A stretch of DNA of 36,909 bases from an uncultured Nitrospiraceae bacterium (GCA_947085305.1 CAMTVV010000132.1:1-36909), one strand, 5' to 3'. Shown: positions 3,997 through 32,553, counted from the first letter of the stretch. The notes: generated by a model not told the origin, from the letters alone. Translations and numbers: made by a program.

Positions 3997-4004
3997 ACGG
4001 TTCA

Positions 4005-12501: not shown

Positions 12502-12558
12502 CACAACCTCCAAATGAAAGCAAGCTCTAAATCCTAATCGATTTCAAAAAAGGTTTTT

Positions 12559-12604
12559 CTCTGTGCTTTCATTCTTCTTTTCTCTGTGACCTCTGTGGCA
12601 GAGA
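12559..12604. repeat. Orphan CACAGAG-heptad repeat in the nuoM-nuoN spacer
   Basis: The minus strand reads CCACAGAGGTCACAGAG...CACAGAG. It is the same motif that brackets the GxxExxY gene. Confidence 0.65.
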
Positions 12605-12649
12605 CTTCTTGCAAGAGCCTCTTTAGCATTTCGATATTAGGGTTTGTTC

Positions 12650-14170
12650 TCATTTCAGGATTCCCATGATCTTTCCGGCAACAGCCACCTCCTGCCCTCC
12701 TGCGTTCAGCCGTTTCAGGAGATTCTCCACCGAGGGGTGCATGAAACTGAGGAACGTATCGGGATAGATGCCGATCCAGAAGACAAGGATCACCATGGGG
12801 AGAAGCGTGATGATCTCCCTCAGGTCCATCTCCTTGAGGCCGACAATCTTCTGATTCGTCTCCATAAAGAAAACCCTCTGGTACAGCCAGAGCATGTATG
12901 CCGCGCCTATTATAATTCCTGTGGCGGCAAGAACGCCTGCCCACTTGCTTGCAGCAAAGCCGCCCAGAATGATGAGAAACTCACCGATAAATCCGTTGGT
13001 GCCCGGCAGTCCGATAGATGCAAGGGTGAATACCATAAAGAACGCTGCATAGACCGGAAGGACAGCAGCGAGTCCTCCGTAGTCGCTTATCTGCCGCGAG
13101 TGAGTACGGTCATAAATGATCCCGACGGAGAGGAACAGTGCCCCTGTTACGATTCCATGATTGATCATCTGGAGGATGCTGCCCTCAAGCCCCTGTGTAT
13201 TCAGCGCAAAGATGCCCAGGGTCACAAACCCCATATGGCTTACCGAGCTGTAGGCGATGAGGCGCTTGAGGTCCGACTGCGCAAGGCATACCACCGCGCC
13301 ATAGATGATAGCGATGACCGAGAGGGTCAGCATCGGAATTGCCATTGCCTTTGCCGCATCAGGGAACAGGGGGATGCTGAATCTCAGGAAACCATAGGCG
13401 CCCATCTTGATCAGCACCGCGGCAAGGATCACGCTGCCTGCGGTGGGGGCCTCGGTATGCGCGTCAGGGAGCCATGTGTGCACCGGAAACATGGGCACCT
13501 TCACGGCAAAGGCCGCAAAGAACGCCCAGAAGAGCCAGAACTGCATCTGATAGGGATAGTTCATGTTCATCAGTTCAAGGATATTAAATGTCTTGCCTGC
13601 ATAGAAATACAGCACGATAATGCCAACAAGCATGAGCACGCTTCCCACAAGGGTAAAGAGGAAAAACTTTATGGCAGCATATATCCTGTTGGGACCGCCC
13701 CAGACCCCGATGAGGAGATACATGGGGATGAGCATCGCCTCCCAGAAGAGATAGAAGAGGAAAAAATCAAGGGATGAGAAGACGCCGATCATGGCGCCTT
13801 CCATTATCAGAATCGCGATGTAGAATTCCTTGAGCTTTGTCTTGATGGAGTTCCATGAGATCAGAACGCAGAGGATCGTGACCAGTGTGCTGAGGAGTAT
13901 GAAAAGGACGCTTATTCCGTCAACCCCCAGGAAATAGTTTATGTTCCATGCGGGAATCCACTGGTGCCTCTCGGTAAACTGCATAAGATGCGTTGTCTTG
14001 TCAAAATCAGTGAACAGGGGAATGGAGAGGATGAAGGCTGCGATGCTCACTGCCAGGGCTACCCATTTTGTCAAAGCCTCCTGACTCCTGCCGATAAGCA
14101 GGATAACAGCCGCGCCCATGAAAGGCAGAAATATCAGGGCGCTGAGAATGGGATAGCCGAGCTCGTTCAT
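12650..14170 (-). CDS. nuoM: NADH-quinone oxidoreductase subunit M
   Basis: Antiporter-like subunit (VKVPMFPVHTWLPDAHTEAPTAGSV). AGGAGG lies upstream. Confidence 0.93.
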   Translation of the reverse strand: MNELGYPILSALIFLPFMGAAVILLIGRSQEALTKWVALAVSIAAFILSIPLFTDFDKTTHLMQFTERHQWIPAWNINYFLGVDGISVLFILLSTLVTILCVLISWNSIKTKLKEFYIAILIMEGAMIGVFSSLDFFLFYLFWEAMLIPMYLLIGVWGGPNRIYAAIKFFLFTLVGSVLMLVGIIVLYFYAGKTFNILELMNMNYPYQMQFWLFWAFFAAFAVKVPMFPVHTWLPDAHTEAPTAGSVILAAVLIKMGAYGFLRFSIPLFPDAAKAMAIPMLTLSVIAIIYGAVVCLAQSDLKRLIAYSSVSHMGFVTLGIFALNTQGLEGSILQMINHGIVTGALFLSVGIIYDRTHSRQISDYGGLAAVLPVYAAFFMVFTLASIGLPGTNGFIGEFLIILGGFAASKWAGVLAATGIIIGAAYMLWLYQRVFFMETNQKIVGLKEMDLREIITLLPMVILVFWIGIYPDTFLSFMHPSVENLLKRLNAGGQEVAVAGKIMGILK

Positions 14171-14222
14171 TAATGGCGCCTCCTGTCGATCACGAAGTTT
14201 AAGCCTTCACTAAAAAATCCTT

Positions 14223-16139
14223 TTACCATAGCAACACCATGGCGATTACCATAAATGCGCCTATGGCCATCACCGCAGCATATTGATGCACCATGCCGGT
14301 CTGGAGACTTCTTAACCACGACGAGAACCTGCCGATGAGGCCCGGGACGCCGTTCACAATGCCTTCGATGATCTTTCCGTCCGTAACGCCCACAATAACG
14401 TTCTTCGCTATCCAGAACGTGGGCCTCACAATAATAAAGTCATAGAGTTCATCAATATAATATTTATTCCACAAAAGCTGATAGATAAAGCTGAACCGCT
14501 GGGAAAGGGTATCGGCTATGGCGCTCTTTCTGAGATATACGAAGGCTGCTGCAGCGATGCCGGTGAAGCCGATGATTACCGAGAGGATAATGACAGCCCA
14601 TTCTTCGGCATGCGTTCCATGGCCCTTGGCATGTCCGACAACGGGTGCGAGGAACTCTGCAAAATGATCGCCGCCGCCGAGAAGAGGCGGTATGCCTACC
14701 CAACCTGAGGCCACTGCGCCGATGCCGAGGATCAGGAGGGGAATGGTCATGATCTTTGGGGATTCGTGAAGATGGCGCTCCTGCTCGTGGGTACCCCTGA
14801 ATTTTCCATGGAACGCGAGGAAGACGATCCTGAATGAGTAGAATGCCGTCAAAAGGGCGGTTAAAGCGCCCAATGCGAATAAGATATGTCCGAGCGGTCC
14901 GGAGGCATATGCCCTCCAGAGGATCTCGTCCTTGCTGAAGAAACCGGCAAGGCCGGGAACGCCCGCAATGCTCAATGAGGCGATAAGGAACGTCCAGTAG
15001 GTCAGCGGCATATGCTTCTTAAGTCCGCCCATTTTCTGAATATCCAACCCCCCTGCCATGGCATGCATGACGCTGCCTGCCCCGAGGAACAAAAGGGCCT
15101 TGAAAAATGCATGGGTATAGAGAAGGAAAATGCCTGCGCTGTAAGCGCCGACGCCGCAGGCAAGGAACATGTATCCAAGCTGGCTCACTGTTGAGTAAGC
15201 GACGATGCGTTTGATGTCGTTCTGCACAAGGGCTATGGTCCCTGCAAAAAGAGCCGTGACCGCACCCACCACCGCAACCGTGTTCATGGCAAAAGGGGAG
15301 AGGTCGAATATGGGACTGCACCGGGCCACAAGAAACACGCCTGCGGTAACCATTGTTGCAGCATGTATCAGCGCGCTCACAGGGGTCGGACCTTCCATGG
15401 CATCCGGCAGCCAGACATGCAAGGGTATCTGGGCCGATTTCCCCACCGCGCCGCAGAAAAGGAGCAAGGCGATGAGGGTGGGGAGATCCACCTCCATGCC
15501 GAGGAAATTCACGGTCTGGCCTGCGATGGTATTCATTGCTCCGAATACCGGGGCATAATGGAGCGTGCCGAAGGTGAGAAACACCATGATCACTCCCAGC
15601 CCGAACCCGAAGTCGCCGAACCTGTTGACGATGAACGCCTTCTTCCCAGCGTCGGAGGCGGACTTCTTCTCATACCAGAAGCCGATGAGGAAATAGGAGC
15701 AGAGACCCACCGCCTCCCACCCGAAATAGAGCTGGAGAAAATTGTTCGACATGACCAGCATCAGCATCGAGAAGGTGAAGAGGCTCAGGAACGAGAAAAA
15801 CCGGTAGTATCCCTTGTCGCCGTGCATGTATCCCACGGAATAGATGTGCACAAGGGAACTTACGGTGGTAACCACGATGAGCATCACCGCGGTGAGCTGA
15901 TCAATGAGAAAACCCACCGAGACCTTGAAGGCGCCGGACGTTATCCAGGTATAGAGGTCCTCATTAATCGTTCTCCCGCCGATAACCTCAAAAAGGGTTA
16001 TCACCGAGATTACCCACGACACCACCACCGCGGGAATGGCAATCCAGTGAGCCTTATCCTTTATCAGGTTCCTGCCGAAAAGGATATTGATAAAAAATGC
16101 GGCCAGTGGGAGAAACGGTATTAAGAGATAGTTATCCAT
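14223..16139 (-). CDS. nuoL: NADH-quinone oxidoreductase subunit L
   Basis: Antiporter-like subunit with a C-terminal lateral-helix extension (GKSAQIPLHVWLPDAMEGPTPVSALIHAATMV). The start is taken at MDNYLLIPF. The 30-codon upstream extension reads through the structured repeat. Confidence 0.92.
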   Translation of the reverse strand: MDNYLLIPFLPLAAFFINILFGRNLIKDKAHWIAIPAVVVSWVISVITLFEVIGGRTINEDLYTWITSGAFKVSVGFLIDQLTAVMLIVVTTVSSLVHIYSVGYMHGDKGYYRFFSFLSLFTFSMLMLVMSNNFLQLYFGWEAVGLCSYFLIGFWYEKKSASDAGKKAFIVNRFGDFGFGLGVIMVFLTFGTLHYAPVFGAMNTIAGQTVNFLGMEVDLPTLIALLLFCGAVGKSAQIPLHVWLPDAMEGPTPVSALIHAATMVTAGVFLVARCSPIFDLSPFAMNTVAVVGAVTALFAGTIALVQNDIKRIVAYSTVSQLGYMFLACGVGAYSAGIFLLYTHAFFKALLFLGAGSVMHAMAGGLDIQKMGGLKKHMPLTYWTFLIASLSIAGVPGLAGFFSKDEILWRAYASGPLGHILFALGALTALLTAFYSFRIVFLAFHGKFRGTHEQERHLHESPKIMTIPLLILGIGAVASGWVGIPPLLGGGDHFAEFLAPVVGHAKGHGTHAEEWAVIILSVIIGFTGIAAAAFVYLRKSAIADTLSQRFSFIYQLLWNKYYIDELYDFIIVRPTFWIAKNVIVGVTDGKIIEGIVNGVPGLIGRFSSWLRSLQTGMVHQYAAVMAIGAFMVIAMVLLW

Positions 16140-16158
16140 ACTCGCTCCATTTCCCCGG

Positions 16159-16281
16159 TTGTCATTCCCGCTTGTCGGGAATCCTTCCCCAAAGGCTTTC
16201 GGAAAATCACAAAAAAAGATTCTGGACAAGCCAGAATGACAGAAACGAATTCGCTAATTTTAAATTTTGCATTTTGCATTC
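16159..16281 (+). repeat. Structured intercistronic repeat, copy B (nuoK-nuoL spacer)
   Basis: TGTCAT ... ATTCCCG-CTTGT-CGGGAAT ... ATTCTGG-ACAAG-CCAGAAT ... ATGACA, then TTTTGCATTTTGCATT. It aligns with 8201-8290. Confidence 0.75.
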
Positions 16282-16293
16282 TTGATTTATCCA

Positions 16294-16596
16294 TCATCCC
16301 TTCATCTCGTTTGCTTCATCCATATGGGCAGTCGCCTTGTTCCTGAAGAGGGCAATAATGATGCCGAGACCTATGGCTGCCTCTGCTGCAGCCACCGCTA
16401 TGATAAAGAACACAAATATCTGCCCTCTCATGTCATCCAGGTAACGGCTGAAGGAGACAAGACTTATGTTCACCGCATTGAGCATGAGCTCTATGGACAG
16501 GAACATGATGATGATGTTCCTCCGCGTCAGAAATCCTGCCACTCCCACAATAAAAACAATTGCGCTCAGCCATAAATACCACTGTAAAGGAATCAT
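16294..16596 (-). CDS. nuoK: NADH-quinone oxidoreductase subunit K
   Basis: 100 aa with 3 TM helices and the conserved membrane glutamates ([18 protein letters not shown]). Confidence 0.93.
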
Positions 16597-16597
16597 C

Positions 16598-17110
16598 CTA
16601 TCTCCTCAGCTTTTTCTTTGCCAGCACTATCGCCCCTATGATCGCCACGAGCAGCACGATTGACACCACCTCAAAGGGGTAAAGATATTCCGTGAAGAGA
16701 ACCTTTCCCAGCGCCTTTGTGTTCGTCTCTGCCTTAATCACTTCATTGGTGAAGGGGCCCTTCTGCCCGGCAACAAAGGAATCCAGGGAAACAATAATGG
16801 CCAGAAATAACCCCGCCGCTGCCATGAGTCCCAGAGGCCACGGTCCCACATATCTCCTCGCTACCGCCTCCTCCCTCAGGTTAAGGAGAAGGATGACGAA
16901 GAGAAAGAGGACAAGGATGGCGCCTGCATACACGATGACCTGGACAGCGGCAAGGAATTCCGCGTTCAATGTCACATACAGGCCCGCGATATGAAAAAAG
17001 AGAAGCAGCATGGCGATCACGCTGTGCACCGGGTTCCTCCTGGTAATCACAAGGATCGACAGGATCGTGATCGCCGCGGCAAGATAGATGAATATTCCTT
17101 CAGCGAGCAT
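16598..17110 (-). CDS. nuoJ: NADH-quinone oxidoreductase subunit J
   Basis: NuoJ-like TM protein. The start is taken at MLAEGIFIY, with GGGGGA 7 nt upstream. The longer ORF to 17233 runs inside nuoI. Confidence 0.88.
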
Positions 17111-17654
17111 TCTGTTTCCCCCTGAAAACCGCCTGGTTCCTGGGAAAACCGAAGTCATCGGCCGTAGGGTGCCAGAACTTCTTGAAGTACTCCATATTCT
17201 TATCCCACCCCATATAGTTGTCCCAGTTGGCAAGCAGCTTCTCCTTGGTCATGTAGAACGCCTCCCTGGAATAATCCGAATATTCATAGTGTTCGGTGAG
17301 GACGACCGCAGCATACGGGCAGGCCTCCACACAAAGTCCGCAGAAAACACACCTGAGCGCTTCTATTTCATACCGTTCCACGATCTTTTTGTGGTCGAGA
17401 CTGTCCGCAGTGTAAATATAAATACATTTTGAGGGGCATATGGCCGCGCAGAGGCCGCATCCCACGCATCGCGCCTCTCCGGTCTGCTGATCCCTCACAA
17501 GACCGTGGAGCCCCCTGAATCCGGGCATCGCAGGCCTTTTCTCCTTTGGATACTGCCGCGTCACAGGGCGGGTGAACATGGTTTTCAGAGTCAGGGCCAT
17601 GCCCTGGGCGATCTCTGTGAGGAACACCGTTTTTACAAGATTCTTCAATGTCAT
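17100..17654 (-). CDS. nuoI: NADH-quinone oxidoreductase subunit I (2x[4Fe-4S])
   Basis: Two motifs: CVGCGLCAAICP and CVFCGLCVEACP. It has a 4-nt overlap with nuoH. Confidence 0.93.
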   Translation of the reverse strand: MTLKNLVKTVFLTEIAQGMALTLKTMFTRPVTRQYPKEKRPAMPGFRGLHGLVRDQQTGEARCVGCGLCAAICPSKCIYIYTADSLDHKKIVERYEIEALRCVFCGLCVEACPYAAVVLTEHYEYSDYSREAFYMTKEKLLANWDNYMGWDKNMEYFKKFWHPTADDFGFPRNQAVFRGKQNAR

Positions 17655-18649
17655 GGCAACACCTTCGTAATCTTCAAGATTCCGGTAAGCACTATGTTAA
17701 ACAATGCGAGGGGGATCAGCACCTTCCATCCCAGGCTCATGAGATGGTCATAGCGGTATCTCGGCAGCGTGGCTCTTACCCAGTAATAGATGAAAATGAG
17801 GACATAGAGCTTTAAGAAAAACCAGGCAAAGGGCACATAGGGTATCGTAAACGGACCGTTCCATCCGCCGAGGAAGCATACGGTCCCGATGGAGGCCATG
17901 ATAATCATTCCGGTGTACTCTGCAACAAAGAAGAGTCCATACCTCATTCCGCTATACTCCACAAAGTACCCCGCCACCAGCTCGCTCTCGGCCTCGGGCA
18001 GGTCAAAGGGCGCCCTGTTGGTTTCTGCGATGGCGGCAATAACAAAGACCGAACAGCCGATAATCTGAGGAATCAGAAACATGCCGAAGGGATATCGTTC
18101 CTGCGCCCGGACGATATCAGAGAGATTCAGCGAACCCGCAAGCATCATCACTCCCACGAGGCTGAGTCCCAGGGCGATTTCATAGCTTATCACCTGAGCG
18201 GCAGACCGCAAGCCGCCGAGGAAAGAATATTTTGAGTTCGACGCCCATCCCGCCAGGATGATTCCGTAGGAACCGAGGGCTGACATGGCAAGGACAAAGA
18301 GCAATCCCACGTTTATATCGGCAATGGCGAATCCGTCAAAGAAGGGGATTACTGCAAGGGATGAAAGGGCCCCCACAAGAGAAATCACGGGAGCAACAAA
18401 GAATACCGGTTTATCAGACTGGGCAGGGATGATGTCTTCCTTGAAGAACAACTTGATGCCGTCTGCAATGGGCTGGAGAAGCCCGTGGGGTCCGACATTC
18501 ATGGGGCCGAGCCTCACCTGCATATGCCCTATGGTTTTCCTTTCAAAGTAAGTCGCATAGGCAACGTGCAGCATCACCGCTCCAAACACGATGAGTATCT
18601 TCGCCAGTATAATTGCAAGGTATAAAAGGGTATCTATTACGCCCGGCAT
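17651..18649 (-). CDS. nuoH: NADH-quinone oxidoreductase subunit H
   Basis: NuoH/ND1 blocks (ERKxxGHMQxRxGP, AETNRAPFDLPEAESELVAG). Confidence 0.93.
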   Translation of the reverse strand: MPGVIDTLLYLAIILAKILIVFGAVMLHVAYATYFERKTIGHMQVRLGPMNVGPHGLLQPIADGIKLFFKEDIIPAQSDKPVFFVAPVISLVGALSSLAVIPFFDGFAIADINVGLLFVLAMSALGSYGIILAGWASNSKYSFLGGLRSAAQVISYEIALGLSLVGVMMLAGSLNLSDIVRAQERYPFGMFLIPQIIGCSVFVIAAIAETNRAPFDLPEAESELVAGYFVEYSGMRYGLFFVAEYTGMIIMASIGTVCFLGGWNGPFTIPYVPFAWFFLKLYVLIFIYYWVRATLPRYRYDHLMSLGWKVLIPLALFNIVLTGILKITKVLP

Positions 18650-18754
18650 GCTAACCTCTCAGCCTCGTCTGCTTCGCCGTTAATAAAACAAGAGCGGCAA
18701 CCGTTTTGTCAAGTGCGCGAGAACAATCCCGGACCCTCGCTCTCCGGTTCCGTA

Positions 18755-19210
18755 TCATCTGCTCTTCCTGAACATAAGGTGCATAAGGTCTATGTACTGA
18801 CTGTTCATATTTCTGACAATGGACGCCAGATGTATGGCAAGCCGCCGTAATATCTTGCCCGCGACAAGCGGATTGGACATGAGGAGCCCGTCAAAGTCCG
18901 CTTTCCTCAACACCGTCAACCGCGTCTGCTGGTCGGAAACAATAGTCGCATCATGAGCGCTGCCGTCAAGAAAGGACATTATCCCGAATATATCCCCCTC
19001 CTTCAGGGTTGCTATGCAGAACTGATCGCCTTCCACCATCATCTTGTTTATCTTCACTTTCCCCTTCCCGATGATATTCAGGCTGTCGCCCCTTTCTCCC
19101 TCTTTGTAAATAATCTCATTCGGCTCATAATCCCTGGACTGCAATAGATCATGGATGATGTCCATCTCCGAGCCGTCAAGCTCCCGGAAAATGTGACTTT
19201 CCCCGGTCAC
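18755..19210 (-). CDS. Stand-alone cyclic-nucleotide-binding (CNB/CAP-effector) fold protein, no DNA-binding domain
   Basis: CNB beta-barrel pattern (YEPNEIIYKEGERGDSLNIIGKGKVKI ... LKEGDIFGIMSFLDGSAHDATIVS). The start is uncertain. GTG at 19210 has GAGGA 7 nt upstream. Alternatives are GTG 19249 or ATG 19345, both overlapping nuoD. Confidence 0.7.
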   Translation of the reverse strand: MTGESHIFRELDGSEMDIIHDLLQSRDYEPNEIIYKEGERGDSLNIIGKGKVKINKMMVEGDQFCIATLKEGDIFGIMSFLDGSAHDATIVSDQQTRLTVLRKADFDGLLMSNPLVAGKILRRLAIHLASIVRNMNSQYIDLMHLMFRKSR

Positions 19211-19238
19211 ACCCGCATCCTCACTCTTATTTCCCGGT

Positions 19239-20441
19239 TTATCTGTCACACTCGCCAAGCACAATGTCGACAGTCCCGATGTTTGCGATGACATCAGCGA
19301 TAAGGGAGCCCTCGCACAGCCTCGGTATGACCGACGCATGGACAAATGATGGCGCCCTCACCCTCATCCGGTAAGGTCTGCCTGTTCCGTCGCTCACAAA
19401 ATAAAACCCCAGCTCGCCCTTCGGCGCTTCCACTGCCGAATATATCTCGCCCTCCGGAGCAGCCATGGGACCCTTGGTAATAAGGACAAAGTGATGGATC
19501 ATGGCTTCCATGCTGCTGAGTACCGTGTTCTTGGGTGGGAGGGTTAGTTTCGGCGCGTCAGGGGCCATGACAGGGCCCGCAGGAAGCCGCTCGATACACT
19601 GCCGTATAATCCTGTTGGACTGCCTGAATTCCTCCATCCTGCAACGATACCGGTCGTACACATCCCCGGCCTTCCCCAAAGGAACGTCGAATTCCACTTT
19701 ATCATATGCGTCATAGGGGGCATGCTTCCTCACATCATACGCTACGCCCGAACCCCTCAGGGTAGGACCCGTGAGTCCCCAGTTCACTGCCTCGTCTGCT
19801 TCAATCACGCCGATGCCCTTTGTCCTCTTGAGCCATATCCGGTTCTGGTCTATGAGCGTCTCATACTCCTCAACCCTCCCCGGGAATTCGTCGGTGAATT
19901 TATAGAGGCTGTCGATGAATTCCTGTGACACGTCGTTCCTGACCCCTCCGATCCTTGCATAACTTGTGGTAAGTCTCGCCCCGCAGAGCATCTCAAAGAG
20001 ATCCAGAAGCCATTCCCTCTCCCTGAAGGAGTAAAGAAACACGGTCATTGCCCCGATGTCCAGGGCATGGGTGCCGAGCCACAGGATATGGCTGCTTATC
20101 CTCGACATCTCCGAAACCATGGTCCTGATATACTTTGCCCTTTCAGGAGCCTCTATTCCGAACAGCCGCTCCACCGCGAGACAGTACCCCTGGTTGTTCA
20201 CCATAGCGGAGATATAGTCAAGCCTGTCGGTGAGGGGAAGGGCGGTGAGGTATGTCCTGTTTTCTCCGAGCTTTTCAACGCCCCGGTGAAGATACCCTAT
20301 ATGGGGAGTGCACTTCACCACGGTTTCGCCGTCCAGTGCAAGGACAAGCCTGAGCACCCCGTGGGTCGCCGGATGCTGCGGCCCCATATTTATGGTCAGC
20401 TCTTTCGTCTGTAATTCAGCGGCGCCCTTATCCGTTATCAT
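19239..20441 (-). CDS. nuoD: NADH-quinone oxidoreductase subunit D
   Basis: NuoD signature ([26 protein letters not shown]-terminal DIVLGECDR). No NiFe-hydrogenase CxxC pairs. Confidence 0.95.
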
Positions 20442-20986
20442 CTTATTTCATACGCCTTGTTTCTCTCCGACAGCTCAAGGATTTCCTTCAGCCCGGGCCA
20501 TTCCTTCTCACCGAGATCACTCTCCAGCGGATAGTCTTTTCTCAGGGGATACCCTTCCCAGTCCTCGGGCATCAATATCCGCAGGAGATCAGGGTGTCCC
20601 TTGAACCGTATCCCGAACATGTCGTAGCACTCCCGTTCATGCCAGTTCGCTCCATCCCAGATGCTCACCACGCTGTCGATCTCGGGGTCATCCTCAGGGA
20701 CTTCAGCCCTGATCCTTATCGTATGCCTGTGGCTGATGGAATAAAGCTGATACACCACCTCGAACCTCGGCTCCTTCTTTCCGAGGTAATCGACACCGCA
20801 AAGGTCTCTCAGATAGCTGAAACAGAGCTCGGGGGTGTCGTGCAGGTATTCCATTATCTCCTTCAGCCTGTCTTTTTGTATAACTACGGATACCTGCCCG
20901 CGGAATTCCCTTATCTCTTTCACTTCAGAGGGAAAACGTTCCCGCATTCCCTCTGCGATCGTCTGTGATATCAATGTCGGTTCCAT
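20438..20986 (-). CDS. nuoC: NADH-quinone oxidoreductase subunit C
   Basis: NuoC motif ([24 protein letters not shown]). ATGA overlap with nuoD. Confidence 0.92.
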
Positions 20987-20996
20987 CTCTTCTCCA

Positions 20997-21060
20997 TTTA
21001 TGATTTCAGATTTATGACTGCTGATTTAAAAATCTGAAATCTGAAATCTACAATCATAAA
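20997..21060. repeat. Long imperfect hairpin built from ATCTGAA/TTCAGAT heptads, filling the nuoB-nuoC spacer
   Basis: The arms at 20997-21027 and 21030-21060 are largely complementary: TTTATGATT...AGATTT pairs with AAATCT...AATCATAAA. It abuts the nuoC RBS. Confidence 0.6.
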
Positions 21061-21067
21061 TCCCTTA

Positions 21068-21589
21068 CTATCTCCACATGCTCCACTTGAAATGCTCTTT
21101 TTTTATCTTCTCCTGAAGCTTGATGATCCCTTCCATAAGGGCTTCAGGCCTTGGCGGACAGCCGGGAATGTACACGTCCACGGGAAGAAAGGTATCAACG
21201 CCCTGGACCGTGCTGTAGGTATTATAGATCCCTCCCGAACATGCGCAGCTTCCCATGGCCATCACATATCTCGGCTCGGGCATCTGGTCGTAGACCCTCC
21301 GTATGACCGGAACCATCTTCTTCGACACCGTGCCGGCGATGATCACCACGTCCGACTGTCTCGGCGAGCCCCTGAAGATAATCCCGAACCGGTCAAGGTC
21401 ATAGTGCGCCGAGCCTGTAGTCATCATTTCTATGGCGCAGCATGCCAGACCAAAGGCCATGGGCCAGAGGGAAGAAACCCTCCCCCAGTTCACGAGCTTG
21501 TCAATGCTCGTGATGATAGTGTTGGCTCCGGGGATTATCTTTACCCTTTCTTCCACTTCGACAAGCGCGGTTGTGCTCTCTTTTATCAT
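21068..21589 (-). CDS. nuoB: NADH-quinone oxidoreductase subunit B
   Basis: N2-cluster motifs ([26 protein letters not shown]). The start is set at MIKEST (GAGGG upstream). The ORF's first ATG at 21616 lies inside a heptad repeat array. Confidence 0.9.
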
Positions 21590-21610
21590 AATGCCCTCGC
21601 TTTCGCTATA

Positions 21611-21675
21611 GCTCATTGCTCATAGCTGATAGCTCATAGTTTCTTGCCATGAGCGATGAACCATGAACTATGAGC
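21611..21675. repeat. Inverted arrays of GCTCATA-type heptads (4 direct, 8-nt spacer, 4 inverted) in the nuoA-nuoB spacer
   Basis: GCTCATT GCTCATA GCTGATA GCTCATA ... CATGAGC GATGAAC CATGAAC TATGAGC. 21 of 28 arm positions are complementary. Confidence 0.7.
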
Positions 21676-21679
21676 TTTC

Positions 21680-22051
21680 TTAGTCCCACCGGAATGCTTC
21701 CTTTTTCCATGCGTACACATAGCCCACCACAAGAATGGCGATAAAGAGCATCATTGACACAAATGCATAGAGTCCGATCTCATCGAATACAATCGCCCAG
21801 GGATACAGGAATACCGCCTCAACGTCAAATATCACAAAGAGCATGGCGACGATATAAAACCTTACGGAAAAACGGTATCGCGGCTCTCCCACGGGGGGAT
21901 TTCCGGACTCGTAGGGAAGGAGTTTTTCCCGGTATGGTCTCCTCAGCCTGAGGACAATGCCCACTGCAAGCGTGCCGAGACCAAACGCCAGCACAACCAC
22001 CATAAAGATGACTATCGGCAAATACTCTTCTGGTAAGAATGCAGTCGGCAT
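21680..22051 (-). CDS. nuoA: NADH-quinone oxidoreductase subunit A
   Basis: NuoA pattern (YESG..P.G, FSVRFYIVAMLFVIFDVEAVFLYPWA). The start is taken at MPTAFLPEEY. The upstream extension to 22165 has no homology and crosses the divergent promoter region. Confidence 0.9.
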   Translation of the reverse strand: MPTAFLPEEYLPIVIFMVVVLAFGLGTLAVGIVLRLRRPYREKLLPYESGNPPVGEPRYRFSVRFYIVAMLFVIFDVEAVFLYPWAIVFDEIGLYAFVSMMLFIAILVVGYVYAWKKEAFRWD

Positions 22052-22149
22052 AAAACGAACTATTTTATACCTAAAATCATAATGAGAGTCAAGCAAAAAA
22101 TCTAATCCTGCAATTTTAGGCACCCAGGCCGATATTTTTTTTAGATTTT

Positions 22150-22158
22150 TGATAAAAT
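22150..22158 (+). promoter_or_regulatory. Extended -10 element (TGATAAAAT) positioned for a leaderless histidine-kinase mRNA
   Basis: TGnTAAAAT ends 6 nt before the ATG at 22165. There is no Shine-Dalgarno. It lies in the AT-rich 113-bp divergent region shared with nuoA. Confidence 0.3.
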
Positions 22159-22164
22159 TGTGCA

Positions 22165-23769
22165 ATGGCCAGAAAATCTTTGAACTCCCTTGCCGGCAAG
22201 CTCATCATCGCAGTGGGCGCCCTCATAACCTTCGGCAGTCTCCTCTTCGGCTTCACCTTCATGCGCTATGAGGAGCGTATCATGATGAACAACCTGATAA
22301 GTTATGCCGCCTCCACGGCAGACCTTGTGAAAAGAGGGATCTATTACTCCATGATGACCGCCCATCGTGAGGCCATTGAGCAGACCGTGGAGGTCATCGG
22401 ATCCGGAGCCGACATCAAGGACATTTCGATCTTGGACAAACGAGGCAAGATTGTGTACTCTTCACAGAAATCCGAGATGGGCCGCTCCGTTGACAAAGGC
22501 GCACCAATCTGCCAGACCTGCCACAAAGACAACGGGGCGCCCCTTGCGGCCCCGGAACCAAGAAACTGGGCCATCGTATCTGATGCATCTGGAACAAAAA
22601 CCCTCAAGTTCGTCATCCCGATCTACAACGAGCCTTCGTGTTATACCGCATCCTGCCACTATCATCCAAAGGAAAAAAATATCCTCGGGATCCTCGAAAC
22701 GGATTTCAGCACCGCGACGGTCGATACCGTCATACGTAAGCACCGTATCGGCACCATCGCGTTCGGCGGCCTCTTTATTATCATGATATCCTTCTCCCTC
22801 TTCATCATCCTCTACAAGTTTGTCTCGAAGCCGGTTTCTCTGCTGGATGAGGGGATGCAGAAACTGGCGAAGGGGGAGCTGGATCACGTCATCGAGATCC
22901 ATTCCCGGGACGAAATGGGACTTCTTGCCGACACCTTCAATGCCATGGCCGGCGATATCAGGCGGTATAAAGACAATATGGAGAACTGGACCAAGGCGCT
23001 GGAAGAGGAGATCCAGAAAAAGACCTCGGAGATCATGAAGGCTCATGACCAGATCATCAATGCAGAGAAGCTCGCTTCCCTGGGCAGGATGGCTGCGGGA
23101 GTTGCCCACGAATTGAACAGCCCCCTTACAGGAATCGTCACCTTTTCCCACCTCATGCTGAAGCGGATGCCTCCTGAGAACAAACAGGATATCGAGGACC
23201 TGGAGGTGATCATAGAACAGACGGAGCGGTGTTCCAAAATCATCAAGGGCCTCCTCGGGTTCTCCCGCAAAACCTCTGCGGAAAAGGTCTTTGTAAACAT
23301 CAACACATTGACGGAGAACACCATCTCCATGGTGAGAAACCAGGCAAAGTTTCATAATATTAAATTCGCGCTGAATTTTGACAATTCCCTCCCCCAGATA
23401 TCCATCGACCCCAACCAGCTGCAGCAGGTCTTTATCAACCTTCTCATCAATGCAGCCGATGCCATGAACGAAAGGGGGCAGGTTACTGTCGCGACCCGGG
23501 TAAGCCTTGACACGGCAAGCGGAAGAAAATTTGTGGAGATTGAGTTCACCGATACGGGACCGGGCATCCCTGAAGAGCACCTCGGCAGGGTGTTTGAACC
23601 GTTTTTTACCACGAAGCCGGTGGGCAAAGGAACAGGGCTGGGGCTTGCGGTGAGTTACGGAATAATCAAGAAACACGGCGGAAATATTTTTGTCAGGAGC
23701 GAACTGGGCAGGGGCGCGAGTTTCTTCGTGAGACTGCCGGCGGAAAACACTGTGGTTGCAGAGTCTTAG
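22165..23769 (+). CDS. Sensor histidine kinase: TM, about 160-aa extracytoplasmic domain with CxxCH and Cx4CH, TM, HAMP, HisKA, HATPase_c
   Basis: TM1 spans residues 9-33 and TM2 about 195-217. HAMP is present. H-box AAGVAHELNSPLTGI, N-box NLLINAADAM, G1 DTGPGI, G2 GTGLGL. Cys motifs ICQTCH (22510-22524) and SCYTASCHYH (22639-22659). Confidence 0.9.
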   Translation: MARKSLNSLAGKLIIAVGALITFGSLLFGFTFMRYEERIMMNNLISYAASTADLVKRGIYYSMMTAHREAIEQTVEVIGSGADIKDISILDKRGKIVYSSQKSEMGRSVDKGAPICQTCHKDNGAPLAAPEPRNWAIVSDASGTKTLKFVIPIYNEPSCYTASCHYHPKEKNILGILETDFSTATVDTVIRKHRIGTIAFGGLFIIMISFSLFIILYKFVSKPVSLLDEGMQKLAKGELDHVIEIHSRDEMGLLADTFNAMAGDIRRYKDNMENWTKALEEEIQKKTSEIMKAHDQIINAEKLASLGRMAAGVAHELNSPLTGIVTFSHLMLKRMPPENKQDIEDLEVIIEQTERCSKIIKGLLGFSRKTSAEKVFVNINTLTENTISMVRNQAKFHNIKFALNFDNSLPQISIDPNQLQQVFINLLINAADAMNERGQVTVATRVSLDTASGRKFVEIEFTDTGPGIPEEHLGRVFEPFFTTKPVGKGTGLGLAVSYGIIKKHGGNIFVRSELGRGASFFVRLPAENTVVAES

Positions 23770-25678: not shown

Positions 25679-25682
25679 CGGA

Positions 25683-26850: not shown

Positions 26851-27714
26851 ATGGCAGGCAGAATACTCGTTGTGGACGATGAACCTGTTGTTGTCAAGAG
26901 CTGTGAACGCATCCTGACTCCGGAAGGGTATGCTGTTGAAAGCGCGTTAAACGGCGTTGAAGCCATTGCCAAACTCGGCGGGGACAGCTTTGATCTTGTG
27001 ATTACCGACCTGAAGATGCCTGATATCGACGGTCTCGAACTTATCCGGTGGATAAGGAATTCCAGGCCTGACACAGGTATCGTGGTCATCACCGGCTTCC
27101 CATCCCAGGAAAGTATCAAAGAAGCCCTCAGCTTAAGGATCCTTGATTATCTTCCCAAGCCTTTTTCCCCTGCCCTCCTTATCGAGATCACCCAGAGAGC
27201 CCTGGAATACAAAAAAGCGGGACGGGCCGCCGAGACTCCCCCGACCGAAGAGTATACTGAGGAGATGGCGAGAGAACTCGATTCCATTATAAAGAAATAC
27301 AGGAAAAAGCCGGGCAGTCTCATCCCCGTGCTTCAGGAGGCCCAGGAGATCATCGGCTTCCTGCCTCCTTCCGTGCAGAGACATATAGCGAAGGGACTGA
27401 AACTTCCGGTGAGCGAAGTGCATGGGGTTGTGTCGTTCTACTCCTTCTTCACCATGAAGCCGAAGGGAAAACACAATATCCGCGTTTGCCTCGGAACGGC
27501 GTGCTATGTAAAGGGTGCTGAGGAGATCGTGAAGAAATTAAGTGAAGGGCTTGCCATCAGTGTGGGGGGAATCACCGAAGACAAGAAGTTCTCCCTCGAA
27601 ACTGTGCGGTGCCTCGGCGCATGCGGATTGGCGCCGGTGGTTGTTGTGGACAAGGATTATCATGGCTCTCTGAACGCAGTCAACGCGCATGAATTGCTGA
27701 AAGACTATGAATAG
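26851..27714 (+). CDS. Receiver domain fused to NuoE/HydC-type thioredoxin-like [2Fe-2S] subunit
   Basis: Residues 1-120 are a receiver (LVVDDEP, LVITDLKMPDIDG, VVITGF, PKPF). Residues about 135-287 are NuoE-like (IPVLQEAQEIIGFLP, VCLGTAC = Cx4C, RCLGAC = Cx3C). Confidence 0.9.
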   Translation: MAGRILVVDDEPVVVKSCERILTPEGYAVESALNGVEAIAKLGGDSFDLVITDLKMPDIDGLELIRWIRNSRPDTGIVVITGFPSQESIKEALSLRILDYLPKPFSPALLIEITQRALEYKKAGRAAETPPTEEYTEEMARELDSIIKKYRKKPGSLIPVLQEAQEIIGFLPPSVQRHIAKGLKLPVSEVHGVVSFYSFFTMKPKGKHNIRVCLGTACYVKGAEEIVKKLSEGLAISVGGITEDKKFSLETVRCLGACGLAPVVVVDKDYHGSLNAVNAHELLKDYE

Positions 27715-27723: not shown

Positions 27724-28107
27724 ATGGGCAGATTGACCATAGAAGATCTTAAGAGAATCAAGGAGGACCACAAGGCAATGCTCACCCTGAGAGAGGGCGG
27801 CTACCGGGCAAAGGTCACGGTCCACATGGGAACCTGCGGCATCGCTGCGGGGGCAAGGAAGGTGATGGAGGCATTGCTTGATGAGATAAACACAAATAAG
27901 GTGGTGGATGTGATCGCGACTACTTCGGGATGCGCCGGGCTCTGCAGCAAGGAACCCATGGCCACTGTCGATATTATCAATGAAGCCCCTGTAAAATATG
28001 TGGAGCTCAATGAAGAAAAGATTCGGAAAATATTCACAGAACATGTTCTGAACGGCCGGATTGTTCAGGACTCTGCCCTTGTCATGGGCAGTGAAACAGC
28101 ATATTAA
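27724..28107 (+). CDS. Small thioredoxin-like [2Fe-2S] ferredoxin (HydD/HndB-like)
   Basis: VTVHMGTCGIAAGA and TSGCAGLCSKEP. The whole protein has only three Cys. Confidence 0.8.
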   Translation: MGRLTIEDLKRIKEDHKAMLTLREGGYRAKVTVHMGTCGIAAGARKVMEALLDEINTNKVVDVIATTSGCAGLCSKEPMATVDIINEAPVKYVELNEEKIRKIFTEHVLNGRIVQDSALVMGSETAY

Positions 28108-28189: not shown

Positions 28190-30073
28190 ATGGAACAGTA
28201 CCGCGCCAGTGTCATGTTGTGTGGAGGCACCGGCTGTATCGCCGGCGGCAGTCTGAAGCTCAAGAACGCTCTTGATGAAGAGCTTAAGAATAGAGGTCTC
28301 GACAATGAGATAAACGTAGTTCTCACAGGCTGTAACGGCTTCTGCGCAGAGGGTCCTGTTATGACGGTCTATCCGGAAGATATCTTTTACGAAAAGGTTA
28401 CAGTCAAAGATGTTCCCCTTATCGTGGAGGAACATTTCATAAAGGGAAGGCCTGTGGAACGGCTTATGTACAAGGAGCCGGTGAAGAAGCAGATCATCCC
28501 GTTAATGAAGGATATTCCGTTCTTCAGCCTTCAGGTTCTCAGGGCATTGAGGAACAAAGGACTTGTGGATGCGGAGAAGATAGAGGACTACATTGCCCGG
28601 GACGGGTATCAGGCAGCGGCAAAGGCCCTGACCGAGATGACCCCGGAACAGGTGATCGACGAGTTGAAGAGATCCGGGCTCCGGGGAAGGGGAGGCGCAG
28701 GCTTCCCTACAGGGTTGAAGTGGGAGTTGTGTGCAAAGGTGAAGGGAGACCAGAAATTTATCCTCTGCAATGGTGATGAAGGAGACCCGGGCGCATTCAT
28801 GGACAGAAGCATCATGGAGGCGGACCCCCACGTTGTTCTTGAGGGAATGATCATCGGCGCAAAGGCCATCGCAGCGAATAAAGGATATATTTATGTGAGG
28901 GCTGAGTATCCCCTTGCCGTTCACCGTCTGCAGCTCGCCATAGACCAGGCAAAAGAATACGGTCTCCTGGGCGACAACATCCTGGGCGCTGGTTTCAATC
29001 TCGATATCGAGATCTATCTGGGCGCGGGCGCGTTTGTCTGCGGTGAGGAAACAGCGCTGATGCGGTCCATCGAGGGGAAACGGGGAATGCCGAGACCGAG
29101 GCCGCCCTTCCCTGCCCAGAAGGGACTCTGGGACAAGCCTTCAGTCCTGAACAACGTCGAAACCTATGCAAATATCCCCCAAATAATACTGAACGGCGCT
29201 GACTGGTACAGAAGCCTCGGAACAGAAAAATCCACCGGCACAAAGGTCTTTGCCCTGAGCGGCGCCATCAACAACATCGGATTGATCGAGGTGCCCATGG
29301 GCATCCCTCTCAGAAAGATCATTTATGACATCGGGGGCGGAATCCCTAACAAGAGGAAATTCAAGGCTGTCCAGTTGGGAGGACCTTCCGGAGGCTGCAT
29401 TCCCGAGCATCTCCTTGATACCCCGGTGACCTATGAAGATATTGTCCAGACAGGCGCAATTGTGGGCTCCGGCGGAATGGTCGTTATGAATGACCTGAAC
29501 TGCATGGTGAGTGTCGCAAAATTCTTCCTTGAGTTCACTGCCGAGGAATCATGCGGCAAATGCCCTCCCTGCAGGATCGGCACCACGGTGATGCTTGATC
29601 TCCTCACGAAGATAACTGAGGGAAAGGGAAACGAGGGCGATATTGAACTCCTCGGGGATATGTCTCTCGACATAATCGCCACTTCCCTCTGCGGCCTTGG
29701 GCAGACCGCGCCCAACCCTGTCCTGACAACGATAAAATATTTCAGGGATGAGTATGAGTCCCACATTAATGAAAAATGGTGCAAGACCGGTGTCTGCAAG
29801 GACCTCTGCACATTCTATATCGATGAAGAGAAGTGCAAGGCGTGCGGGCAGTGCAAGAAGGTATGTCCCCAGAGTGCGATTTCCGGGGAGAAGAAGGTGC
29901 CTCACCGTATCGATCAGCCCCTCTGCATCCAGTGCAGGTCATGCTACGAGGTCTGCAAGTTCGATTCGGTGAAGATCGGTCCCCTGAGCATGCGTGAGAC
30001 CCTCAGGAACCTCCCTGACCAGGAGGCGCTGAGTAACAAGCAGGTCGAGGCGCTTGCGGGAAAGGAGGAATAA
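28190..30073 (+). CDS. NuoF-like NADH/FMN subunit of the HydB/HndC type (extra N-terminal 2Fe-2S and C-terminal 2x[4Fe-4S] domains)
   Basis: N-terminal LCGGTGC...GCNGFC. FMN/NADH motifs GRGGAGFPTGLKW and GDEGDPGAF. N3-type ESCGKCPPCR...SLCGLG. C-terminal CKACGQCKKVCP and CIQCRSCYEVC. Confidence 0.92.
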   Translation: MEQYRASVMLCGGTGCIAGGSLKLKNALDEELKNRGLDNEINVVLTGCNGFCAEGPVMTVYPEDIFYEKVTVKDVPLIVEEHFIKGRPVERLMYKEPVKKQIIPLMKDIPFFSLQVLRALRNKGLVDAEKIEDYIARDGYQAAAKALTEMTPEQVIDELKRSGLRGRGGAGFPTGLKWELCAKVKGDQKFILCNGDEGDPGAFMDRSIMEADPHVVLEGMIIGAKAIAANKGYIYVRAEYPLAVHRLQLAIDQAKEYGLLGDNILGAGFNLDIEIYLGAGAFVCGEETALMRSIEGKRGMPRPRPPFPAQKGLWDKPSVLNNVETYANIPQIILNGADWYRSLGTEKSTGTKVFALSGAINNIGLIEVPMGIPLRKIIYDIGGGIPNKRKFKAVQLGGPSGGCIPEHLLDTPVTYEDIVQTGAIVGSGGMVVMNDLNCMVSVAKFFLEFTAEESCGKCPPCRIGTTVMLDLLTKITEGKGNEGDIELLGDMSLDIIATSLCGLGQTAPNPVLTTIKYFRDEYESHINEKWCKTGVCKDLCTFYIDEEKCKACGQCKKVCPQSAISGEKKVPHRIDQPLCIQCRSCYEVCKFDSVKIGPLSMRETLRNLPDQEALSNKQVEALAGKEE

Positions 30074-30078
30074 GAAAA

Positions 30079-32553
30079 ATGATAGAACTTAAGATAAATG
30101 GAAAAACAGTAAAGGTTGAAGCGGGAAGCACAATCCTCCAGGCTGCCAGGGAAAGCGACATCTATATTCCGAACCTCTGTTATGACAAGAGGCTCAGACC
30201 TTATGGCGGCTGCAGGCTTTGCATCGTGGAAGTGGAAGGACAGAAAAGGCTTTTTGCCGCCTGTTCCACCCCTGCCGAGAACGGCATGATAGTGCAAACG
30301 GAAACACCGAAACTTCATAAGGCGAGGAAGACCGTTCTCGAATTCCTGCTCATACACCACCCCCTCGACTGTCCGATCTGCGACAAGGCCGGGGAATGTC
30401 AGCTCCAGGACCTTGCATTCAAATACGGGCCTTCAGAGTCAAGGTTTGTCGGAGAGAGAAAACACGAGCCTGAAAGCATTGCCGCACCCCTTGTGGAAAG
30501 AAACCCTAACAGGTGTATCCTTTGCGGCAAGTGCGTAAGGGTTTGCTACGATCATCAGGGCGTCGGCGCCATAAACCTTCTCGGCAGGGGCTTCAAATCG
30601 AAGATAAGTCCCGCCTTTGAGGAAACCCTTGACTGCGAATTCTGCGGCCAGTGCATCGACGCATGCCCCGTGGGCGCTCTGGGAAGCAAACCCTATCGGT
30701 TCAGGTCAAGGGTATGGTTCCTCGATGAAAAGGCAATCGCCTGCCCGTACTGCGGCTGCGGCTGCACTACAAACCTCGGCCTTAGGGACGGCAGGATTGT
30801 ACGGGCAAGAGGGAAACAGGGTATCGGAATAAACGATGGAGACCTCTGCAGCAGGGGCAGGTTCGGGTTCGATTACATCTATTCCGAAAACAGATTGACC
30901 ACTCCCATGATCAGAAAGAACGGAACTCTGGTTAAGGCAACCTGGGAAGAGGTGCTTGAGTATATCGCAAAGAGCCTCCAGTCCATAAAAGAGAAATACG
31001 GCCCCTCGGGCATCGGCGCCATAGGCTCACAGAGGTGCACCATGGAAGACAATTACATGCTGCAGCGCTTCATGAGGGAGGTCATCGGAACAGATAACAT
31101 CGATTCAGCAGCCCGGTTCGGGTATGCAAAGGCACAAAAGGCAATGGAAATGGCCTTTGGTATTGACTTCCACCCGATCCGGTGGGATGCTCCGCTGAAC
31201 GCTGACTTTATCCTGGTAGTGGAATCAGATATCACTTCCACCCTGCCTGTGTGGGGGCTTAATTTTATCAAGGCGAGGAACAATGGCGCCCAGCTTGTTG
31301 TTGCAGACCCGAAGGAGACAAAGCTTGCGCGGAACAGCTCCTCATGGCTCCAGATTAAACCCGGCTCGGGCATCGCACTTCTCAACGGCATTGCAAAGGT
31401 GATCCTTGACGAAAAACTTTACGACCTGGATGAAGAAGTCCTCATGGAGGACAAAGACCTTACCATACCGAATTATGAAGCCCTGGTGAAGAGCCTTGCA
31501 GACTTTACGCCCCCGGCTGTTGCCGAACTCACCGGCCTTTCCGAAGAAGAGATCGTTCATCTGGCGAGGTCATATTCAGCTGCAAAGAACAGGCTCTTAA
31601 CCCTGACGTCAGGGGCCTCTGAAAATACAAAGGGGATGAACACCCTTCTTGCTGCAGCAAATCTTGTCCTGCTCATGGGGGATGCACCTGAGACCCTCCA
31701 GATACCTGCCGAGTATTCCAATACCCTCGGCATGTGGAAGGTCGGCGTGAGACCCCTCTCCGGAGGGAAGGACGCCCATGAAATGCTGTACCAGCCCGGC
31801 GCGGTAAAGGCCCTTTATATGATGGGAGAAAACCCCCTGGTCACCTTCAAGAATGTCTCGGCCGTAGAAAAGTCGCTGAAGGGACTTGAGTTCCTCGTGG
31901 TGCAGGATATAATCCTCACCGATACCGCAAAACTTGCCGATGTGGTCCTCCCGGCCAGCAGCTGGGGAGAAAAAGACGGCATCTTTATGTCTTCCACCGG
32001 CAATGTCCTGGAGGTCCCCAAACTCCTGCCGGAAACCGGGCAGTCAGTGCCTGACTGGAAGATATTCAGGAACCTGGCAAGGATGATGAACAGGGACCTG
32101 GGAGAAAAAGATCTTTCTGAAATCAGGGAAGCAATTATGGATCTCGTTGCAGCGGGCCCGGCAGGGGAAGAGGTTCTCTCCTTCAATCCTGTGGAGCAAA
32201 AGATCTCGGAGAAGCCGGACGAAGAGTATCCTCTTCTTCTCATCACTTCGGACCTGTTGCAGCACTCAGGCGCCCTGTCGGTTCTTTCGAAGAACCTCGG
32301 CTCGGTCGTCTCCGATGCGTACCTGCAGATAAACCCTGCTGATGCAAAGAAATACAGGATACATGATGATGGGTACGTGAAGGTAAGGTCCAGAAGGGGA
32401 GAAGTATATCTGAAGGCGATGATCTCGGATGAAATGCCTGAAGGCGCGGTATTTGCGCCGGCGCATTTCCCCCACGCCAACGTAAATGCGTTGACGCACC
32501 CTTCCCTGAACGGTGAATCGCCTGTAGACGCGGTAAAGGTTGAATTGGCATGA
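30079..32553 (+). CDS. NuoG-like Fe-S subunit with a molybdopterin-oxidoreductase fold that lacks formate-dehydrogenase catalytic residues
   Basis: N-terminal 2Fe-2S (CYDKRL..CRLC..C). His-ligated cluster HHPLDCPICDKAGEC. CILCGKCVRVC and CEFCGQCIDACP. CPYCGCGC cluster. Mo-bisPGD-like domains. Where FdhF has CARV-U-HGP, this protein has AARFGYAKA (31114-31125). Confidence 0.85.
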   Translation: MIELKINGKTVKVEAGSTILQAARESDIYIPNLCYDKRLRPYGGCRLCIVEVEGQKRLFAACSTPAENGMIVQTETPKLHKARKTVLEFLLIHHPLDCPICDKAGECQLQDLAFKYGPSESRFVGERKHEPESIAAPLVERNPNRCILCGKCVRVCYDHQGVGAINLLGRGFKSKISPAFEETLDCEFCGQCIDACPVGALGSKPYRFRSRVWFLDEKAIACPYCGCGCTTNLGLRDGRIVRARGKQGIGINDGDLCSRGRFGFDYIYSENRLTTPMIRKNGTLVKATWEEVLEYIAKSLQSIKEKYGPSGIGAIGSQRCTMEDNYMLQRFMREVIGTDNIDSAARFGYAKAQKAMEMAFGIDFHPIRWDAPLNADFILVVESDITSTLPVWGLNFIKARNNGAQLVVADPKETKLARNSSSWLQIKPGSGIALLNGIAKVILDEKLYDLDEEVLMEDKDLTIPNYEALVKSLADFTPPAVAELTGLSEEEIVHLARSYSAAKNRLLTLTSGASENTKGMNTLLAAANLVLLMGDAPETLQIPAEYSNTLGMWKVGVRPLSGGKDAHEMLYQPGAVKALYMMGENPLVTFKNVSAVEKSLKGLEFLVVQDIILTDTAKLADVVLPASSWGEKDGIFMSSTGNVLEVPKLLPETGQSVPDWKIFRNLARMMNRDLGEKDLSEIREAIMDLVAAGPAGEEVLSFNPVEQKISEKPDEEYPLLLITSDLLQHSGALSVLSKNLGSVVSDAYLQINPADAKKYRIHDDGYVKVRSRRGEVYLKAMISDEMPEGAVFAPAHFPHANVNALTHPSLNGESPVDAVKVELA

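Follow-up and report, generated by a model that had tools for sequence, protein, structure and literature searches.

A putative electron-input module with HydABC-type subunits encoded beside an 11-subunit complex I operon in an uncultured Nitrospiraceae bacterium

Introduction

Many anaerobes carry an 11-subunit complex I without NuoEFG, and the electron donor of this complex is a long-standing question. The question is raised again by a stretch of 36,909 nucleotides from an uncultured Nitrospiraceae bacterium (GCA_947085305.1 CAMTVV010000132.1:1-36909), hereafter called the window, to the whole of which all coordinates refer. In it, an operon for such a complex adjoins a divergently transcribed gene cluster encoding three proteins, called E, F and G here, that are related to NuoE, NuoF and NuoG. 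A sequence-only reading of the F and G genes had proposed that they form an input module in which G is a connector and not an enzyme, and that electrons gathered from reduced nicotinamide adenine dinucleotide (NADH), and possibly from ferredoxin, pass into the neighbouring membrane complex.

On balance, we consider it somewhat probable that E, a small ferredoxin-like protein encoded between E and F, F and G make up the electron-input (N) module of a complex I of the "Nuo-Bfu" type. This type was predicted by Schut et al. 2022 (Front Microbiol 13:946711; PMC9304861) as a complex I of 14 subunits with BfuABC in the place of NuoEFG; it was placed in BfuB clades 38 (Deferribacteres, Proteobacteria) and 39 (Planctomycetes, Nitrospirae), and its proposed reaction is the oxidation of NADH and reduced ferredoxin together with the reduction of menaquinone (PMC9304861). 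A literature search found no mention of Nuo-Bfu outside Schut et al. 2022. Therefore, the proposal made in the sequence-only reading rediscovers a published idea. What is new here relative to Nuo-Bfu is the splitting of the genes, the fusion of a receiver domain to NuoE, a HydABC-style set of signalling genes and a small paralogue with three Cys residues.

F and E resemble the core subunits of bifurcating enzymes

Protein F (28190..30073, plus strand; 627 amino acids, aa) is, judged from its sequence, a full-length HydB/BfuB-type subunit, and F and E together are an orthodox BfuB/BfuC pair with motifs for all cofactor sites of the bifurcating HydABC/NfnABC core, the sites being those defined in the 2025 NfnABC structure paper. 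The Pfam matches of F to Complex1_51K (PF01512, 1.9e-47) and NADH_4Fe-4S (PF10589, 6.5e-32) correspond to the flavin mononucleotide (FMN)/NADH site and the B1 [4Fe-4S] cluster. They are accompanied by a 2Fe-2S_thioredx match at the N terminus (residues 6-81) and by Fer4 dicluster matches at the C terminus (residues 542-592, nucleotides ~29813-29965), so that the extra N-terminal thioredoxin-like domain and two C-terminal 4Fe-4S motifs described in the sequence-only reading were recovered by Pfam and by a map of the Cys residues.

Residues 3-594 of F aligned with zero gaps (E-value 7e-251) to 7t2r_B, the NiFe-HydB chain of the bifurcating enzyme of Acetomicrobium mobile, with 60% identity over 591 aa. 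The ligands of the N3-type [4Fe-4S] cluster (B1; C455, C458, C461 and C501) are present in this alignment, and the C-terminal 2x[4Fe-4S] domain (B3 and B4), which is the ferredoxin-reducing end, has C549/552/555/559 and C579/582/585/589. The thioredoxin-like four-Cys site (B5; C11/16/48/52) and the B2/Zn region (Cys 531/536/540) also align with HydB, the identity of the metal at either being not readable from sequence. Other solved BfuB chains matched F almost as well, and respiratory Nqo1/NuoF aligned to the core only.

Protein E (26851..27714, plus strand) consists of a receiver domain (residues 5-113) and a thioredoxin-like [2Fe-2S] domain of the NuoE/HydC/BfuC type (residues 144-286; PF01257, 2.3e-50), in which the C1 [2Fe-2S] site is present (C213, C218, C254 and C258). 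Its best matches in the PDB were the HydC chains 7t2r_C (5e-40) and 7q4v_C. For F and G, the E-values of 1e-120 to 1e-250 against solved structures exclude chance similarity.

One statement of the sequence-only reading has to be corrected. It held that the extra HydB-type domains are absent from respiratory NuoF, and they do occur in NuoF proteins inside complete nuo operons (PMC9304861; the P0123 and P0135 operons described below).

G is a NuoG-type protein without the formate dehydrogenase active site

Protein G (30079..32553, plus strand; 824 aa) matched the Pfam families Fer2_4, NADH-G_4Fe-4S_3, Fer4_Nqo3, Molybdop_Fe4S4, Molybdopterin and Molydop_binding, and the Molybdopterin match (6e-55) spans the whole profile, in keeping with the earlier description of NuoG/HydA-type N-terminal clusters joined to a full molybdopterin fold. 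All five iron-sulphur (Fe-S) motifs of the NuoG/FdsA type are present, including the [2Fe-2S] motif and an 8-Cys 2x[4Fe-4S] ferredoxin domain, with H94, C98, C101 and C107 as the ligands of the His-ligated [4Fe-4S] cluster (N5/A3) and C222, C225, C229 and C257 as those of the N7/A5-type [4Fe-4S] cluster. The cluster ligands, those of N5/A3 included, are invariant in 37 members of the clade of G. A phmmer search of the PDB gave as best solved relatives the alpha subunit of an NAD-dependent formate dehydrogenase (Fdh; 6tg9_A, 1e-119) and FdhF (2e-84). The AlphaFold2 model of G had a TM-score (template-modelling score, from Foldseek) of 0.75 to FdhF, normalised to FdhF; the model has low confidence at residues 92-214, the Fe-S region, and the cofactor pocket was not judged from it.

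Two other identities for G were rejected. It is not the HydA of an FeFe-hydrogenase, since it has no H-cluster domain: there is no Fe-hydrogenase Pfam domain and no TSCCP, MPCT or ECMGGC motif. Nor is it a selenoprotein with a hidden TGA, since the frame is open and has no in-frame stop. The absence of H-cluster motifs and of an in-frame TGA agrees with the sequence-only reading.

The residues on which Fdh catalysis is centred have been replaced. In a HMMER alignment, AARFGYAKA of G was placed on CARVCHSPT of Rhodobacter capsulatus FdsA, and in a MAFFT alignment with Escherichia coli FdhF, Gly348-Tyr349 (31120..31125, plus strand) occupied the columns of Sec140 and His141; there is no Cys/Sec-His pair at this site. 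The segment QIPAEYSNTLG (31699..31731, plus strand), a remnant of the Fdh motif NPVRGQNNVQG, has Ala544 in the Arg333 column of the MAFFT alignment. Both of these losses had been read correctly from the sequence. In addition, the alignment showed Thr-Ser-Asp (32245..32253, plus strand) where FdhF has the pterin-binding motif TGR of domain IV (Arg581), deletion of the C-terminal TPEYK segment with Lys679, and loss of Asn176, His181 and the GQN of the RGQNNVQG motif.

These replacements were followed through 80 genomic loci of Nitrospirota (L001-L080; 47-86% identity to G), the best homologues all being from Nitrospirota of the order Thermodesulfovibrionales, Dissulfurispiraceae included. The metal-ligand position is Gly in 79 of the 80 and Ser in the other one, with Cys or Sec in none, and the residue after it is Tyr, Phe or His in 79 and Thr in one. 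No homologue has Arg in the Arg333 column, where the pattern Q.PAE.SNT.G is common to most. In the wider family, represented by the 150 best representatives out of 1.8 billion protein clusters, the Cys-His-Arg triad was found in only 17, and the remainder form a large triad-less radiation.

As a control, retention was counted over the 80 alignment columns with an invariance of at least 90% among 18 true Fdh sequences (the 17 above, with E. coli FdhF added by hand). True Fdh proteins keep 65-80 of these 80 positions, G keeps 43 and E. coli NuoG 31, and the NuoG proteins P0135, P0132 and P0123, which are encoded in nuo operons, keep 47, 51 and 54, respectively. In a neighbour-joining (NJ) tree with 40 bootstraps, the Nitrospirota clade of G was monophyletic in 40 of 40, and triad-less proteins surrounded it in one layer after another. 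The smallest clade to unite the clade of G with P0123 was free of true Fdh in 39 of the 40 bootstraps, and the true-Fdh clade was without G in all 40.

The possibility that G is a recently decayed Fdh was rejected, since the whole clade has the Gly-aromatic motif and the triad is also missing from the ~40 nearest representative relatives. Taken together, the clade-wide motif, the triad-less wider family, the control count and the NJ tree indicate that G is of the NuoG type. The sequence-only reading that G is a connector and not an enzyme is therefore well supported by these comparisons: the triad is missing throughout the clade, G is as degenerate as the NuoG of nuo operons, and it stands apart from true Fdh in the tree.

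Two side observations concern the wider family. P0121, a metagenomic protein of 1405 aa, is a fusion; in its G-like half, the active-site positions are occupied by Glu-His and an Arg. Triad-less G-like genes that stand alone, with no E, F or nuo neighbours, were seen in the P0124, P0127 and P0128 loci.

Gene neighbourhoods and docking on the 11-subunit complex I

The nuo operon of the window (11080..22165, minus strand; open reading frames and translations) has the order nuoA-B-C-D-(cyclic nucleotide, cNMP, -binding protein)-H-I-J-K-L-M-N, and no nuoE, nuoF or nuoG was found within it. It adjoins the E-F-G cluster, which is transcribed divergently and begins ~110 bp from the likely start of nuoA. 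The gene for the cyclic-nucleotide-binding domain, between nuoD and nuoH (18755-19345, minus strand), lies in the slot that nuoEFG take in 14-gene operons.

This layout, with nuo genes diverging from a cluster that runs from the kinase gene to G, recurs in L003, L004, L021, L022 and L027. In L025 (4699-12457), L026 and L037, the genes nuoD, nuoI, a gene for a 149-aa protein, receiver-nuoE, F and G follow one another in one direction; the 149-aa protein is membrane-anchored and belongs to no Pfam family, and no nuoA, nuoB or nuoC lies upstream, giving a split nuo arrangement. As an observation in itself, this arrangement ties Q-module genes to the input module. The closest outgroup of G, P0123 (44% identity; motifs HFGF and PAEFANLQG), is encoded in an operon of nuoE, a Bfu-type F, G and nuoA-B-CD-H-I-J-K-L-M-N, the F of which (639 aa) has both the N-terminal 2Fe-2S domain and the C-terminal Fer4 domains. 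P0135 (40% identity) belongs to the arrangement nuoABCD, E, F (593 aa, Bfu-type), G, x, HIJKLMN, with an rnf operon adjoining. P0132 (39% identity; RYGY motif) serves as NuoG in a Nitrospirota nuo operon of the canonical 14-gene kind, where NuoF is short.

In complex I, the N5/A3 cluster is the exit point to NuoI. The neighbourhoods of the relatives, the invariance of the N5/A3 ligands and the adjoining nuo operon without EFG make docking on NuoABCDHIJKLMN the best reading, and we consider it likely, from this genomic evidence, that the module docks on the divergently encoded complex. The Nuo subunits compared were 40-76% identical to those of L083, L085 and L025; the Nuo core tracks the phylum, being nearer to L083, and E-F-G resemble the Bfu-type operon of L085, a result that is neutral on docking.

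Proposed electron flow

In the proposed mechanism, the module would dock on NuoB, NuoC, NuoD and NuoI of NuoABCDHIJKLMN. Electrons from NADH would enter at FMN, pass through the 2Fe-2S, 4Fe-4S and His-ligated N5/A3 clusters of G, and leave N5/A3 by way of NuoI and cluster N2 of NuoB to menaquinone. Further electrons may come from reduced ferredoxin, by way of the C-terminal B3 and B4 clusters of F and of the mobile cluster C1 in E. Such confurcation, which is plausible by analogy with the bifurcating enzymes, would raise the driving force for proton pumping with a low-potential menaquinone.

Several observations weigh against the assignment of the module to complex I, or against the use of ferredoxin in it. 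Among the ~46 relatives whose 10-kb upstream flank is complete, only ~8 show any nuo gene in it, and the close relatives L001 and L002 have none nearby. G is nearer to Fdh than to any solved NuoG, in sequence and in fold, and it retains the dinucleotide-binding motifs DP, QDI and LPxSSWGE, which are also kept by the NuoG proteins of nuo operons. A well-conserved gene of the FdhD/NarQ family follows G in eight relatives, and in L017 a MoaA gene lies close to G, three genes upstream. The cluster has its own regulators and looks like the clusters of soluble HydABC enzymes. The role of ferredoxin is deduced wholly from the kept BfuB/BfuC cofactor sites, and NADH and reduced ferredoxin each reduce menaquinone exergonically, so that confurcation is not thermodynamically required. 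Finally, to our knowledge, Nuo-Bfu of any layout is known as a prediction only.

The suggestion in the sequence-only reading that electrons are fed into the neighbouring membrane complex thus stands in part: it agrees with the EFG-less nuo operon, the two layouts found in five and three relatives and the operon of the outgroup, and it fits poorly with the lack of nuo genes within 10 kb in most relatives and with FdhD in eight.

An unlikely, though by no means negligible, alternative is that the module, once docked on the 11-subunit complex, acts as an ordinary NADH dehydrogenase, in which the HydB-type domains are baggage, regulatory or structural, and ferredoxin is no co-substrate. The transfer of electrons from NADH to menaquinone is exergonic by itself, the phylum also has a canonical short NuoF together with a related NuoG, the cluster has no ferredoxin gene linked to it, and only three Cys are present in the small 2Fe-2S-like protein. 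This alternative is at odds with the retention of every B3, B4, B5 and C1 ligand and with the 60% identity of the whole of F to a proven bifurcating HydB, the conservation of which across many lineages argues for function.

FdhD and the question of a pterin cofactor

In L016, L017 and L061, FdhD is the gene next after G; in L008, L009, L012, L015 and L055, a single gene separates the two, and a PAS-GAF-GAF gene is often found between the G homologue and FdhD. Its position keeps alive an explanation that we judge distinctly improbable, in which E-F-G is a soluble Bfu enzyme, G binds a cryptic pterin cofactor without a protein metal ligand and acts on formate or a third substrate, and the adjacency to nuo is incidental. 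Besides the conserved FdhD in eight loci and MoaA in L017, this explanation could draw on the strong and complete Molybdopterin match of G, its dinucleotide-binding motifs and the absence of adjoining nuo genes in most relatives. The Cys/Sec, His, Arg333, Arg581 (TGR replaced by TSD) and Lys679 are, however, all gone from G, which keeps no more of the Fdh-invariant sites than does the NuoG of nuo operons, and the sister lineages are located inside nuo operons. Moreover, Thermodesulfovibrio species have a periplasmic FdhAB, which needs FdhD anyway (PMC5165239), and thus FdhD beside G may be leftover synteny. In some lineages, FdhD might still act on G, at a pterin pocket that has become degenerate. 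A Type 3 Fdh-Bfu with a separate pterin subunit was considered and rejected, as no gene for such a subunit was found in the window or in the 80 loci.

The receiver domain, the small paralogue and the signalling genes

The input-module cluster begins, on the plus strand, with a histidine kinase gene (22165-23769), which is followed by genes for DRTGG, HATPase, DRTGG, PHP and HATPase proteins in this order (23756-26216), a single-domain response regulator (26336-26713), E, a small thioredoxin-like protein of the 2Fe-2S type (27724..28107), F and G; the regulatory genes were assigned by Pfam. Conservation across the loci extends only to a core made up of the response regulator, receiver-NuoE, the small protein, F and G. 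The PHP and second HATPase genes recur in ~20 related loci and the histidine kinase and first DRTGG genes in ~10. The DRTGG/HATPase/DRTGG/PHP/HATPase set resembles the accessory genes of Firmicute HydABC clusters; a literature search for DRTGG and PHP genes with hydrogenases gave nothing useful.

In the receiver domain of E, the phospho-acceptor residues (the acidic pocket DD, D53, T81 and K103) are kept in at least 90% of 61 Nitrospirota homologues. The domain is absent from the NuoE of the sister nuo operons L083, L085 and L088, and a literature search found no paper on a receiver-NuoE fusion. The histidine kinase has a CQTCH (CXXCH) and a CYTASCH motif between its two membrane segments, which suggests that it may be a periplasmic c-haem redox sensor. 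The small protein is a stand-alone paralogue of the N-terminal thioredoxin-like domain of BfuB, and tblastn located it between E and F in 54 of the 80 loci. With three Cys only, it may carry Zn or no cofactor at all in place of a 2Fe-2S cluster.

Regulation of the module, either of its activity or of its attachment, would fall to the receiver domain on E together with the kinase and phosphatase-like genes upstream. A more specific version, which we offer as a quite improbable one, is that E-F-G is a detachable N-module under phosphorylation control, exerted through receiver-NuoE, the haem-motif kinase and the PHP and HATPase proteins, that switches a ferredoxin-driven 11-subunit complex I to NADH (plus ferredoxin).

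The same genes could be taken to mean that E-F-G serves a partner that is not encoded nearby, such as another membrane complex or one of the Hdr/Qmo type, or that it is mainly a redox-sensing or signalling assembly working with the two-component genes. Together with the kinase, DRTGG, PHP and HATPase genes upstream, the receiver fused to E invites this thought, as does the existence of orphan G-like genes without E, F or nuo neighbours. We nevertheless hold it to be very improbable: across the 80 loci, no alternative partner gene is kept beside the cluster, and the chain of FMN and Fe-S sites is retained in full, as it is in functional enzymes.

Comparison with known systems

The assignment to Nuo-Bfu is based on a BfuB-type F and a BfuC-type E in place of canonical NuoEF, a NuoG-like BfuA (G) with the A3 cluster, NuoABCDHIJKLMN as the presumed partner and the absence of canonical NuoEFG from the window. 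In contrast to the published clusters, in which the ABC genes lie in the middle of one 14-gene cluster, the genes here form a separate, divergent cluster, and most relatives of the window have module genes unlinked to nuo; the 14-gene embedding of BfuABC genes was found in the sister lineages L085 and L088. Also unlike Nuo-Bfu are the receiver on E, the HydABC-style signalling gene set and the small paralogue of the B5 domain.

Among solved enzymes, the nearest to F and E is NiFe-HydABCSL of A. mobile (7t2r), with its 60% identical HydB and with HydC as the best match of E. Its HydA (692 aa) matches G only at residues 2-343, the Fe-S part. The HydSL output module of that enzyme is homologous to NuoB/NuoD. 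NiFe-HydABCSL, however, is a soluble enzyme with a NiFe site at which H2 is formed or consumed, whereas the presumed output here is a membrane-bound, quinone-reducing NuoB/NuoD with antiporter-like subunits.

G shares with FdsA (R. capsulatus, 6tg9) and E. coli FdhF the order of the Fe-S domains and the four-domain molybdopterin fold, but it is without Cys386/Sec140, the His, Arg333, the TGR arginine and Lys679, and it falls outside the true-Fdh group in the tree, its grouping being with NuoG proteins from nuo operons. Like canonical NuoG (Thermus thermophilus Nqo3; E. coli and Mycobacterium smegmatis NuoG; L083), it appears from its motifs to be a cofactor-less relic of the Fdh fold with N1b, N4, N5 and N7, and R-[FY]-G-Y at the former active site is common to G and the Nitrospirota operon NuoG P0132 (L083). 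It differs from canonical NuoG in having a complete second [4Fe-4S] motif in the ferredoxin domain, in its pairing with a long Bfu-type F and in being encoded outside the nuo operon.

The locus and its relatives suggest that the complex I of Thermodesulfovibrionia may get electrons from NADH, and possibly from ferredoxin, through a separately encoded HydABC-like module, which would give the Nuo-Bfu hypothesis a second genomic layout. Genome work on Thermodesulfovibrio concluded that NADH is not the donor (PMC5165239), and a literature search on nuoEFG in Thermodesulfovibrionia gave nothing useful. The cluster occurs in some sequences assigned to Dissulfurispira; if a culturable relative of this kind carries it, co-purification could be tested. 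For annotation, BfuA subunits like G are easily mistaken for formate dehydrogenase.

Other genes in the window

On the 3′ side of G are genes for a rhomboid protease and a Zn-ribbon response regulator, followed by groES/groEL. At 3097-5549, a DUF362 gene precedes the gene for a membrane polyferredoxin of 514 aa that contains several 4Fe-4S motifs and has no evident link to E-F-G.

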